A DNA stretch of 64,000 nt. Origin: Lama guanicoe. Lineage: Eukaryota. Below are positions 10,706 to 30,265 of this stretch, one piece after another; position 1 is the first letter of the stretch, and the number at the start of each line of letters is the position of its first letter. The notes under the pieces were generated by a model that searched no databases, was not told where the DNA came from, and worked only from the letters and a program-made list of their open reading frames with translations. The stretch is taken from assembly GCA_013239625.1 (NCBI GenBank), contig MU056905.1, forward strand, positions 2,253,967 through 2,317,966. The letters run 5' to 3'. The translations under genes were made by a program, and so were the position numbers.

Positions 10706-13700
10706 CTAGCACTTCTTACAGCTCACGCTGCTGCCACCCACCCCGGCGCAGGGGCTGCAGGCATTGGCGGTGCCCACTACCACGTTGCCGCTGCAGGGGG
10801 CGCTGCAGACGCTGGTGGTGACAGCAGGGGCAGCACCAGAGGCGCATAGATCGCCACAGACGACGCCACCGCGGGAGCTGCTGACGCCTGATGGGAGGGA
10901 GAGAACAGGCAAAGACGCGGATCAGGCGCTGCCACAGCCAGGCGGCTTGGGTGCAGGGAAAATGCCACCTCCCCAAAGGCACTGGGACCACCCAGCTGGA
11001 GAAGGGGGCGGGGCGGGCTACTTACAGACATTCACAGCTCCCAAGCCCTCGCACAGCCTGCAGGGAAAGGAAAAGACAGAGGTCAGTGCCGTGGAAAAGC
11101 CACTGGGCCACGCAGCCAAGGTGAAAGGTGAGGTCCTCCGCCCTCCTTCTGGGCACTTGTTCAGGAGAAGAGGCGATAAACCGCAGCCAGTTCACCAAAT
11201 GGGTTCTGGAGACAGAACGCAGGTGCACCTGGCTCTCCACCTCTTATTAGCTGAGCATCCTCAGATCTGCCTCCCCTCCTCCTCCTGGAGAAAATCTACT
11301 CCATGATCTGTTGTGAGGACAAACTCAAATGATATAAGTGCTTGGTGTGTGCCACCTAGTGAGAAACGGTAACTTCAGAAACGGTAGCTTCTATTTCTGT
11401 TGGTTCTGGTTGACTTGAAAACGTATCTGAGGGGCAGCAGATTAACTTCCTAAACCTGGTCTGATTGGTGTCACTAGAATGTGGGCTTGAGGAAGACAGA
11501 AGTGTTTGTCTCTTCTTTTTTCCCATTGCAGAATCGACAGTGCTCCCAGAACAATGCCTGGATCAATAAATGGCATTTGCATGAATGAATGGAACATGAG
11601 AACCCATCGAGAGCAGGCTCACAGACTAGCTACACCAATTCCCTCACTTGATGGATGGAGAAACTGAGGCCCAGGCCAAGGAAATAACCAGTGCTAGAGG
11701 CAGAGCTATCACCCTGGCCACCCAATCCCACCCAGCCCAGTTCCTTCCCATACCACAATCTCTCCTTAAGGAAAGCACACGGAGTCCATCTGAGAGACCG
11801 TGGCAAAAGGTTGTCAAAATCAGCTGCAGAAATAAGGAGAATCTGCAGCCCACCATCTGCCATCCCATGCCCAGGTTTCTTAGGGAACCCACACCAAAGT
11901 TTCTGAGTTCACCCTAAGAGTACTTTGTGGCAGAGGGGAGGGCCACTCCTTTCTTAATGCTATCTCCACGTGCCTCTCCAATGTCCAGAGTTTTGAAAAA
12001 ATATCCCCCCCAGAATTCCTCACTAATGAAACTTCCCAGTGCCTCTGAGCTCTCCAACGCAGTTACTTCAGTTTGTTGTGAGTCTCACCATGGGATCACC
12101 TTGATTCCGTCTCCCCAATACACAGGATGCTCCCTCTGCATCCTCACCCTCCACTCTGCCCTGCCCAGGGCCAGGGGCCTGGTGTGCACGAGAAGAGGAA
12201 GACTCAGACTGTGAGCACCTGACTAACCTGGGGAAAGAGCCAATGGGCAACATTCTGGAACTGTTGTCCTCACAGCTGTTCAGCTGCCCTCTAGCCACAG
12301 GAAGCCTGAATGATCAAGGGGCCTCCCCCTTCCCCCAAAACAAGCAACAAGCAAAAATGCCCAGAGCAGGTCATAGCTGCCTCAAAGGACCAGTCACTGC
12401 TGTCTAGCCTTAGTCCTCCCTGCTGCAATGGAAGACCACTTTGGGGCACTCAGTGTAGTTAAAATATATATGTGTATGTTGATAAAAATCCCTTATTGAA
12501 GCTATCATTTGGGGATAAATCTAAACTCCAACAATTGGAGGCAGGGCCAGGCTTGAGAAGAGAGCTGAAATCCTGAGAGGACTGTGCAATGAGGGCTCAA
12601 AGGGAAGAAATTGTTTTCAGGGAAGGTGGCCCCGAGCCCATACCAGGCTTTCTAGAGCAGTGATTACTATGGCCTTGATTCCATGCTCTGAGGAACACAT
12701 GTGCTAAAGGGACCAATCCCAGATCAGCACCTAGGTGAACGAGAGAGAGTCCCATGGGGATAGAAACATACCCAAAGCATGTACTCAAATTACCTGTCCA
12801 GTTACAAAATGGGGAGGTTTGGAAACAGAAGTCAAGTGATACCAGGAATGTGAGGGACACGGCACTCTGAGACCCAAGGAGGGATGGGATAGAAATTTGG
12901 CTATGGCACCCACCTCTGCTCCTCGCCCTCCAGCAGGCGCCTGTAGGTGGCGATCTCGATGTCCAGGCCCAGCTTGGAGTTCAACACCTCCTGGTACTCC
13001 CTGACCAGGCAGGCCATGTCCTGCTTGGCCTTCTGCAGGGCTTCCTCCAGTCCCGCCAGTTTGCAGCGGGCATCATTAATGGCGGCCTCGCCCTGCTGCT
13101 CAGCCTGGGTCACTGCTGCCTCCAGCTTGGAGATCTAGGGGGCCCAGGAGAGAACAAGGTGAGTTATGGTCCCTGGGTCTCTGTGCTTATTTCCTACTTG
13201 TGTTCAGTCACTCCCAGCCAGCTGGGATCACCCCAGGAACAAGGCCTCTCACCTTCGTCACCTGGGTCACCCTGAGTGATCACAACCAAGACTCTGGTCA
13301 TGCAAATAGACGGGAGAATGAATGGTGAGATCCATTTGGGTGCAAACTGCCCCCAGCCCCCCTGGTCTTGGGGAGAGATGACCCCTACCTGGCACTTGGC
13401 GTTCTCCACCTCGGCTGTCAGCCTCTGGATCATGCGGTTCAGCTCATTGATCTCCTCCTTAGTGCGGCGCAGGGTCTCCCCTTGCCGGATCACCGTGGCC
13501 TTGATCTCCTCACACTGAGGGGAAGCAAAGAGGCTCAGGAAGCTCAGGATGGGACGTCCTGCCCATTCAGGACACCTCAGATGATGTGCCAGGTGTACAC
13601 TGCTCAGCTTGTACAGCCATACATGGCAGCCCTGTCCTGCCACTAGAACGTGAGAGCTGTCTGGCTTTTGTTACCACCTCTAGGGAACAGAATCCTCTGA

Positions 13701-28200: not shown

Positions 28201-30265
28201 ATTGACTTCCTGCGGCGACTCTATGAGGAGGTGAGGGGTTGTGGTCCAGGCAGAAAACCAGCAGCTGGCCCGGGATTGGAGTTGAAGGGGATTTGGGCAA
28301 GGAGCTGCAGTCCATGAGGCTGTCAGATGGGGCAGTGGCTGGAGACGAGGGAAGGGCTTGGAAAGCTGGATGCAGACTTGGTTGGTGAGGCAGTGGTGTA
28401 AACAAAATCCTTCCATCTGCCACCCCACCATCTGCAGGAGATCCACGTTCTCCAAGCCAACATCTCAGACACCTCGGTCATCGTCAAGATGGACAACAGC
28501 CGGGACCTGAACTTGGACTGCATCGTCGCTGAGATCAAGGAGCAGTACGATGACATCGTCAGACGCAGCCGGGCTGAGGCTGAGTCCTGGTACCGCAGCA
28601 AAGTGAGTGGCCCAGGACCCCTGCCTCCTATACATGGTGATGGAAGGGATTTGAGGTGTATAATAGAAAAGGCTTCTTTTGTCAGAGGATTCTGTTCCCT
28701 AGAGGTGGTAACAAAAGCCAGACAGCTCTCACGTTCTAGTGGCAGGACAGGGCTGCCATGTATGGCTGTACAAGCTGAGCACTGTACACCTGGCACATCA
28801 TCTGAGGTGTCCTGAATGGGCAGGACGTCCCATCCTGAGCTTCCTGAGCCTCTTTGCTTCCCCTCAGTGTGAGGAGATCAAGGCCACGGTGATCCGGCAA
28901 GGGGAGACCCTGCGCCGCACTAAGGAGGAGATCAATGAGCTGAACCGCATGATCCAGAGGCTGACAGCCGAGGTGGAGAACGCCAAGTGCCAGGTAGGGG
29001 TCATCTCTCCCCAAGACCAGGGGGGCTGGGGGCAGTTTGCACCCAAATGGATCTCACCATTCATTCTCCCGTCTATTTGCATGACCAGAGTCTTGGTTGT
29101 GATCACTCAGGGTGACCCAGGTGACGAAGGTGAGAGGCCTTGTTCCTGGGGTGATCCCAGCTGGCTGGGAGAGACTGGACACATCAGGAAATGAACACAG
29201 AGACCCAGGGACTATAACCCACCTTGTTCTCTTCTGGGCCCCCTAGATCTCCAAGCTGGAGGCAGCAGTGACCCAGGCTAAGCAGCAGGGCGAGGCCGCC
29301 GTTAATGATGCCCGCTGCAAACTGTTGGGACTGGAGGAAGCCCTGCAGAAGGCCAAGCAGGACATGGCCTGCCTGGTCAGGGAGTACCAGGAGGTGTTGA
29401 ACTCCAAGCTGGGCCTGGACATCGAGATCGCCACCTACAGGCGCCTGCTGGAGGGCGAGGAGCAGAGGTAGGACCCAAACCAGCCTGATTCTGAGCTGCC
29501 CCTTCCCACTCTGTGCACAAGCATCCCCCTGGTCCTGGCCGAGCAATGGCCCCAGATCCGGGACAAACCTATCATTTATCACTTTGCGGTGGGTGGCTCA
29601 GAAGACTATTCCTTCAGACTCTCTGCTTCTACCTTCTTGACCACGGCTGGACCCCACACCCAAAATGTGTGGAGCTCAGTCTGCATCTCGGCTGAGTCAC
29701 TAATGTTGCCTCTTTCCTCTTCTTTCACAGACTATGTGAAAGTGTAGGGGCCGTGAATGTCTGTAAGTAACTTGGGCCCTGTGTGGATGGATTTACTTGC
29801 TTCCTGTAAGGGATGGAAGGAGATGTTTTGTTGAGACCTAAATAGAAGAGTGGCCTGGCATCACAGCAGGAGGAATTTGGGGTCAGTCAGCAGGAAAGAC
29901 CACAGCTTTGGTAGTTGATGGACCTAGAGTTGTGAAGTAAAGATGCTTGGGGAGGGGCATCACTTGGGAGGTGGGAAACTTGGCTCCCCAGAATTTTGAC
30001 TCAGCCTCTGGGTTTCGCAGGTGTCAGCAGCTCCCGGGGCGGAATTGTCTGCGGGGACCTCTGCGTGTCTGGCTCCAGGCCGGTGACGGGCAGCGTCTGC
30101 AGCGCCCCCTGCACAGGGAACGTGGCGGTGAGCACCGGCCTGTGCGCGCCCTGCGGCCCCTGCAATTCCATCACGTCTTGTGGCCTGGGCACCGGCGGCG
30201 TGGGCTCCTGCGGCATCAGCTCCTGTGGCGTGGGGTCCTGTGCCAGTAGCTGCCGCAAATGTTAG
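25207..30265 (+). CDS. KRT81: Type II hair keratin K81, 9 exons, 507 aa
   Basis: Exons 25207-25575, 26299-26507, 27311-27371, 28135-28230, 28438-28602, 28868-28993, 29247-29467, 29731-29762, 30021-30265; all GT-AG, 1524 nt open frame. Long K81-type tail ...[22 protein letters not shown]; head-to-head with KRT86. Confidence 0.9.
25913..29171. repeat. Right arm of the near-identical inverted repeat (partner 13211-16469)
   Basis: Reverse complement of the KRT86 intron 1 to intron 6 region, with only scattered substitutions seen. Confidence 0.95.

Follow-up and report, generated by a model that had tools for sequence, protein, structure and literature searches.

The question raised by this locus is why two hair-keratin genes on opposite strands are indistinguishable through the middle and different at both ends. 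KRT86 (Hb6; 10706..16838, minus strand; 486 aa) and KRT81 (Hb1; 25207..30265, plus strand; 507 aa) are transcribed divergently, back to back, in a 64,000-nt stretch of Lama guanicoe DNA (the window). Both coding spans are intact, with nine exons and only GT-AG introns, and their products are 1 aa (KRT86) and 3 aa (KRT81) from alpaca RefSeq K86 and K81. The gene naming and geometry given in a preliminary description were borne out, as head, tail and synteny agree with named records; the gene order in the window (K85, K83, K86, K81, K7) is that of the alpaca table (PMC6598621). We consider it probable, at roughly 85%, that the 3.27-kb stretch from intron 1 to intron 6 is kept identical by repeated non-crossover conversion between KRT86 and KRT81.

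A repeat search of the window returned an inverted repeat with arms of 3269 nt each and an arm-to-arm distance of 9447 nt. The left arm (13199..16467, minus strand) runs from nearly all of KRT86 intron 1 through exons 2-6 into part of intron 6; the right arm (25915..29183, plus strand) covers the same exons and part of intron 6 in KRT81 but takes in only the 3' part of intron 1. The near-perfect repeat without net indel described earlier, 13211-16469 against 25913-29171 (3259 nt), was indeed a pair of reverse complements, with 9 mismatches and 0 indels. Three mismatches lie at the intron-1 edge and six are internal (13600, 14978, 15642, 15730, 15773 and 15781). Over the 3244 nt of the core (13211-16454) the arms are 99.8% identical and free of indels, and they differ at 6 sites, every one intronic; the longest perfect run is 1377 nt. 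Exons 2-6 showed 0 mismatches, with the constant coordinate sums of 42382 already reported. The arm identity far exceeds chance and ordinary paralogy: with the ~13% divergence between K81 and K83 introns 5-6 as reference, the probability of no more than 6 mismatches across 2587 intronic nt had a log10 of about -144. The structure is a spaced inverted repeat and strictly speaking no palindrome. Y and X palindromes also have near-identical inverted arms around a unique spacer, alike through arm-to-arm conversion; these sex-chromosome arms span tens to hundreds of kb and include complete gene copies, whereas each keratin arm is part of one gene and a third as long as the spacer.

Identity falls away on both sides of the core. 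The shoulder beyond it (KRT86, 12914..13198, minus strand; KRT81, 29184..29467, plus strand) consists of the diverged rest of intron 6, with a 1-nt indel, and exon 7, with 4 mismatches in 221 nt (98% identity), and homology stops at the intron-7 donor. BLAST merges core and shoulder into 3559 nt at 99.35%. The divergence noted earlier for exon 1, intron 7 and exon 8 was seen in all three: exon 1 (KRT86, 16470..16838, minus strand; KRT81, 25207..25575, plus strand) had 42 mismatches in 369 nt (89% identity), intron 7 measured 1856 nt in KRT86 and 263 nt in KRT81 and gave no alignment, and exon 8 had 10 mismatches in 32 nt. Intron 1 of KRT81 (723 nt) is 337 nt longer than that of KRT86 (386 nt), which shifts exon 1 out of register by that length. 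The tract limits coincide with these heterologies, the 337-nt intron-1 offset and the unrelated intron 7. The grading from core to intron 6 end, exon 7 and exon 1 suggests tracts of differing age, the shoulder probably being older.

On sequence comparison, KRT81 intron 1 is a chimaera containing KRT86 intron 1. Its 5' part (25576..25914, plus strand) is native to KRT81, has no counterpart in KRT86 and is homologous to intron 1 of KRT88-like (76%) and KRT87-like (79%); it forms the heterology that bounds the tract. KRT86 and KRT83 have the KRT86-type intron-1 sequence directly at the genuine donor, and in KRT81 it is internal, behind 337 nt matching the KRT88/87-like introns. It starts there with a ~30-nt internal copy of the intron-1 donor-side motif (25915..25945, plus strand), which is likely the homology anchor of the tract; a comparable internal motif was found in KRT87-like intron 1 (54655-54682). 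Given this chimaera, the intron-1 part of the tract was likely copied from KRT86 into KRT81.

Because ~2.6 kb of intron is included in the identity, we attribute it to recent homogenisation and not to protein-level selection, as the preliminary description had done. The arms differ at only 6 of these unselected positions, against 80-87% identity of introns 5-6 to other paralogues, and introns 2-4 gave no alignment to any other paralogue. The intron-level identity comes from one assembly, and other species were compared at the protein level.

In the protein trees, the exon 2-6 region grouped by lineage and the tail by orthologue, with 24 K86 tail rows set apart from 25 K81 rows (support 100/99). 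The exon 2-6 protein was the same in both paralogues in all five camelid pairs. Of 24 mammal pairs, 23 differed within the species at 0-6 of the 219 rod residues, against 13-34 between orders; the porpoise pair, whose K86 is without the anchor motif, was excluded from this table. The exception was the elephant shrew, with 19 of 219 rod residues different, and the ruminant rod showed no strict grouping by species, the grouping within ruminants and apes being mixed or poorly separated. The ruminant mixing and the elephant shrew indicate that conversion frequency is unequal among lineages. A lineage-specific change was common to both paralogues: residue 248 is H in both genes of the window and in alpaca RefSeq K81 and K86, two proteins that do not differ in exons 2-6. 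In three Camelus species both paralogues carry R, and K83 has Q. H248 is one single change and could have arisen twice independently. In exon 7, KRT86 and KRT81 of the window have residues in common that are absent from both Camelus paralogues.

Under the conversion reading, a break in one arm would be repaired with the other arm as template. If substitutions accrue at 1.5-3e-9 per site per year, as assumed here, the newest long tract would date to a few hundred thousand years ago (0.1-1.3 My). Crossovers that flip the spacer would be rare, or selected against, and the outcome would be a common rod between gene-specific promoters, heads and tails. The tails measure 70 aa with 10 Cys in KRT86 and 91 aa with 15 Cys in KRT81.

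The similarity of KRT81, KRT83 and KRT86 was described beforehand as known, and concerted evolution of K81/K83/K86(/K87) is indeed published: in the accessible sections of Nery et al. (2014; PMC4195889) and Sun et al. (2017; PMC5540548), paralogues cluster within species, which is ascribed to interparalogue conversion or unequal crossing-over. The identity of this tract is likely an instance of it. However, of the 19 concerted keratin groups of Sun et al., only 3 showed significant conversion or recombination according to the same sections, which counts against the conversion reading. The accessible sections of both papers treat the same genes through coding-sequence trees, without intron-level tract ends, direction, inverted-repeat geometry or camelid data. 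Searches of the open-access literature turned up no description of the KRT81/KRT86 tract or of an inversion here, older hair-keratin gene-structure papers in subscription journals being outside that scope.

The spacer, put at ~9.4 kb in the preliminary description, measures 9447 nt (16468..25914) and contains, as stated there, both first exons and both promoters, together with the KRT81-specific 5' part of intron 1. Exon 1 of KRT86 (head and start of rod 1A) is unlike that of KRT81 at 16 of 123 aa, and the two promoters are unrelated, with no alignment to each other. A motif scan of the KRT86 proximal promoter (16940..17200, minus strand) gave putative TATA-, HOX13-, LEF/TCF- and AP-1-like sites; of the motifs scanned, the KRT81 promoter has in common only putative HOX13-like and TATA-like sites.

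It is possible, but unlikely, that the arms serve also as a crossover substrate and that the spacer segregates as an inversion in (South American) camelids, with the promoter and head of each gene on the other gene's tail. The inversion and conversion readings are mutually compatible. Highly identical inverted repeats stand on either side of a unique segment, the configuration for NAHR, and the long perfect run and 99.8% identity offer a substrate. Hybrid products would be in frame by their exon phases, from which the predicted crossover outcome follows: exon 1 would move to the other tail together with the promoter and a portion of intron 1, both genes staying intact. In the accessible part of PMC6748972, human inversions between such repeats are mostly recurrent. 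The human CTRB1/CTRB2 16.6-kb inversion (HsInv0030) is a precedent, with opposite-strand paralogues identical over exons 2-6 and a flip that exchanges everything from the promoter through exon 1 and intron 1 without disrupting either gene (PMC6145291 and PMC6748972, accessible parts). In these sources both CTRB1/CTRB2 orientations are genotyped and tied to expression and disease, whereas for KRT86/KRT81 only the ancestral orientation was seen. The CTRB1/CTRB2 swap concerns the signal peptide, whereas a KRT86/KRT81 swap would alter the mature protein through 16 head residues and differing tails.

Head-tail pairing was surveyed in 143 species labels, with one haplotype per assembly. Of 461 proteins fetched, 205 were labelled (one of them unclassifiable) and 256 were unlabelled and dropped; the dropped records were fragments, K83/K85/K87/K88/K89-type proteins, most unnamed records, and models fusing exons of same-strand neighbours (among them P0009, P0026, P0027, P0065, P0191, P0197, P0290). 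Ancestral pairing only was found in 133 labels, a swapped record in 10 and a reciprocal pair of hybrid genes in none, in a partial sample in which the partner gene was unseen for four swapped species (gorilla, Reeves' muntjac, snow leopard and Francois' langur); these four records favour an inversion. On the other hand, the partner carries the same head in 4 of the 10 swapped species, and in right whale and fin whale alike a further record joins the same K81 head to a broken tail. Narwhal, colobus, dingo and grey whale records showed one-way head replacement; the dingo model begins without a start Met and could be an artefact of same-strand gene modelling. Heads differ little in most mammals, so short conversions or assembly collapse account for the swapped records. 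The record P0360, which has a frameshifted tail, was set aside as misclassified by the regex.

Both genes were in ancestral pairing in the window and in 28 species (alpaca and three camels included), and this pairing is kept across placentals and, for K86, in marsupials too. All 4 named camelid species were in ancestral pairing, with no swapped record. In the T2T human inversion table (44 samples), none of the 8 chr12 rows lies near the keratin cluster, which we take to be at ~52 Mb. The benign polymorphic inversion proposed earlier is not supported by these results, although a rare segregating flip may exist, given one haplotype per assembly; of the phrase "conversion palindrome or flip-able segment", the conversion is supported, the flip is unsupported, and the repeat is no strict palindrome.

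It is rather improbable that the assembler merged more divergent arms and wrote one consensus twice, which would inflate the intron identity. The genome is in 55,231 contigs, and older camelid annotations are broken or chimaeric here, with a split dromedary K81 (P0013, P0126) and a K88-head/K86-tail alpaca model (P0290). However, a real long repeat would itself break models in older assemblies. A copied consensus would have no differences, whereas six survive, four of which cluster in 139 nt (post-hoc P = 0.004); some of the six may be alleles. No N was found inside or near the arms, and the exon 2-6 identity recurs in more recent annotations of alpaca and camels, built on other assemblies.

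A reading in which purifying selection on the rod domain is the sole reason for the likeness of the genes, as the conserved type II hair-keratin rod (Pfam PF00038 on nearly all matches) might suggest, has a negligible probability, since silent sites and the intron are also ~99.8% identical and the rod differs between orders and, by several residues, from same-genome K83; the intron identity rules it out unless that identity is itself an assembly artefact.

Exons 2-6 of two major fibre-keratin genes, 3.3 kb, are indistinguishable by short reads in alpaca-like camelids, which probably undermines SNP, CNV and expression calls made in this region; the fibre genes listed by a camelid CNV preprint include KRT83 and KRT86. 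A mutation in the tract could pass to both genes. The locus has the CTRB1/CTRB2 layout, yet its head-tail pairing looks conserved across mammals despite constant conversion, which makes it a small test case for toggling versus convert-only repeats. A segregating flip, undetectable by short-read genotyping, would hide a structural variant among the fibre genes of a fibre animal and, with the promoters exchanged, yield K86-head/K81-tail and K81-head/K86-tail fibre keratins. It would matter more in these camelids than in other mammals, because the heads of the window pair differ by 16 residues and those of non-camelid pairs by 1-12. Spacer words were contained at 0.89-0.95 in 20 of 24 sequencing runs (5 organism labels), all of them short-word sets of assembled contigs, which cannot span an arm. 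The GC of arm introns 2-3 was 0.59-0.63, above most paralogue introns, with intron 3 of K83 and K85 at 0.64-0.68.

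KRT86 (16838-10706, minus strand) and KRT81 (25207-30265, plus strand) encode intact proteins of 486 and 507 aa, respectively, and every intron in both genes is GT-AG. The names assigned to them in the preliminary description were correct, since window KRT86 and KRT81 differ from alpaca RefSeq Hb6 and Hb1 by only 1 and 3 residues, compared with 17 and 16 residues from dromedary, which places the host among the South American camelids. The gene order across the window and flanking stretches was K85, K89-like (opposite strand), K83, K86, K81, K88-like, K87-like and K7-like, where the K87, K88, K89 and K7 labels are putative and assigned by position. 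The alpaca table in PMC6598621 has the matching order K85-K83-K86-K81-K7.

Self-comparison of the window bore out the near-perfect inverted repeat previously proposed at 13211-16469 and 25913-29171, with 9/3259 mismatches and no indels. The inverted repeat between KRT86 and KRT81 is a real feature, and a repeat search placed its arms at 13199-16467 and 25915-29183 with a gap of 9447 nt. In the core (13211-16454), all 6 mismatches in 3244 nt were in introns and the uninterrupted matches measured 388, 1377, 663, 87, 42, 7 and 673 nt. Four of the six mismatches fell inside 139 nt (P = 0.004, post-hoc simulation), as expected if tracts differing in age overlap. Exons 2-6 were identical between the genes, and introns 2-5 were equal in length with 4, 1, 0 and 1 mismatches, respectively. 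Mismatches numbered 4/221 in exon 7, 42/369 in exon 1 and 10/32 in exon 8, and the paralogue comparison gave no alignment for intron 7, intron 8 or the promoters. Heterologies coincided with both tract ends.

Gene conversion explains the inverted repeat with a probability of roughly 85%. We compared protein records across species (24/25 species pairs) over the 219-residue exon 2-6 region. K81 and K86 showed no differences in 5/5 camelid pairs and 0-6 differences in 23/24 pairs (elephant shrew, 19), while orthologues across orders differed at 13-34 residues. The rod tree placed all 10 camelid rows in a single clade (100/99) whichever the gene, and in the tail tree the 24 K86 rows were separate from the 25 K81 rows (100/99). 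Rods alike within species and tails split by gene upheld the recent homogenization that had been suggested. Ruminant rods grouped partly by orthologue, suggesting that conversion is slower in ruminants. Smaller patches also agreed with conversion: wild-camel K86 exon 1 resembled K81 past the first codons, and in dromedary exon 7 of K81 resembled K83. Residue 248 was H in window KRT81 and KRT86 and in their alpaca RefSeq counterparts, R in both paralogues of three Camelus species, and Q in K83; because H248 is common to both paralogues and Camelus has R, homogenization likely postdates the split from camels. The core mismatches correspond to 0.3-0.6 My (range 0.1-1.3 My) if the rate is taken as 1.5-3e-9 per site per year.

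PMC4195889 and PMC5540548 state concerted evolution of K81/K83/K86, with significant conversion or recombination in only 3/19 concerted groups in the latter. The tract is a new, well-delimited instance of this already reported process. Our open-access literature search found no description of this tract or of an inversion at the KRT81/KRT86 locus; the accessible portions of PMC12523852 and PMC8733776 held nothing on the KRT81/KRT86 tract. A camelid CNV preprint (10.1101/2025.08.28.672513) counts KRT83 and KRT86 as fibre genes, and coordinates of their CNVs may be in its supplement.

KRT81 intron 1 is 723 nt long. Its first 337 nt match introns of the KRT88-like (76%) and KRT87-like (79%) genes, and from an internal repeat of the donor-side motif onwards it is 99.5% identical to the 386-nt intron 1 of KRT86. 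This KRT86-type sequence lies at the true donor in KRT86 and KRT83 and internally in KRT81, and a comparable internal motif occupies the same place in the KRT87-like gene as in KRT81. We infer that an old internal repeat anchored conversion of the intron-1 part from KRT86 to KRT81. The intron-1 offset may shield exon 1 against conversion. The K86 head (16470-16838, minus strand) differs from K81 by the non-conservative G19R, G44D and C71Y, and the K81 and K86 heads differ by 14-16 aa in 4/5 camelid pairs vs 1-12 in other mammals.

A crossover between the arms would invert the spacer, producing two in-frame hybrid genes. This part of the earlier proposal stood and resembles human CTRB1/CTRB2, which has the same layout with exon 2-6 identity and a 16.6-kb inversion exchanging the promoter together with exon 1 and intron 1 (PMC6145291). 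Among human inversions mediated by repeats, the majority are recurrent (PMC6748972). The polymorphic inversion proposed for camelids is a plausible extension that the data do not support, and it is unlikely. Free toggling predicts many lineages with swapped pairing (the head of one gene on the tail of the other), in reciprocal pairs. We fetched 461 proteins, giving 205 named K81/K86-type records labeled by species (204 classifiable). Reciprocal pairs were found in 0/143 species labels and a swapped record in 10 among the matches listed, in a survey covering up to 15 members per cluster, with one haplotype per assembly and with heads few residues apart in most mammals. Ancestral pairing only was seen in 133/143 labels, and in 28 of these for both genes, including alpaca and three camels, again among the matches listed. 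In narwhal, colobus, dingo and grey whale, the partner of the swapped record carried an identical type of head. Right whale and fin whale both had a further K81-headed record, whose tail was broken; the pattern in these six fits one-way replacement or assembly collapse. The swapped records of gorilla, Reeves' muntjac, snow leopard and Francois' langur, with partners outside the sampled records, are leads. We take the keratin cluster to lie within 46.9-71.5 Mb of chr12. The T2T inversion paper (PMC10150506) gives 8 chr12 rows for 44 samples in its Table S1, and none of these rows fell between 46.9 and 71.5 Mb. The evidence favors conversion without crossover and leaves room for a rare flip.

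Baleen whale protein records (P0053, P0064, P0046) carried a K81-type head on K86 in right, grey and fin whale, whereas toothed whales retained the K86 head on K86; the baleen arrangement is likely an ancestral one-way exon-1 conversion.

Assembler collapse inflating arm identity is very improbable: the assembly is in many pieces (55,231 contigs) and intron identity is known from it alone, but the arms retained differences, had graded edges and contained no N, and exon identity was the same in other camelid assemblies. An assembler could also pick the spacer orientation arbitrarily without long-range data, but the orientation in the window was the ancestral one.

Exon 2 (209 nt) was 100% identical in K83, K86 and K81, 99% in K89-like and 97% in K88-like; K83 exon 2 lies outside the window, 243-451 nt upstream of its start. 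The introns flanking exon 2 were unrelated among paralogues, and K83 exons 3-4 were only 77% and 89% identical. On our reading of these sequences, exon 2 may be an exon-limited conversion hub of five genes.

The KRT87-like gene (54081-60759, plus strand) looks broken and is likely a pseudogene: a deletion takes the exon 1 end together with the intron-1 donor, while exon 6 spans 131 alignment columns vs 126 nt. The exons of the KRT88-like gene (44330-49710, minus strand) were open where readable, with exon 7 entering an N stretch. Two alpaca RefSeq models (P0191, P0290) join a KRT88-like head and rod to KRT86 tail exons ~33 kb downstream, reflecting either read-through splicing or an artefact of the models. 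A probable keratin gene relic (37637-39545, minus strand) separates KRT81 from the KRT88-like gene: two lone, diverged exons of type II keratin character, resembling exons 6 and 7 and with 47-49% aa identity to K81. K83 exon 7 (2478-2698) has L398 in the window, as in K81/K86, and M in alpaca RefSeq K83, possibly a small conversion patch variable among these camelids.
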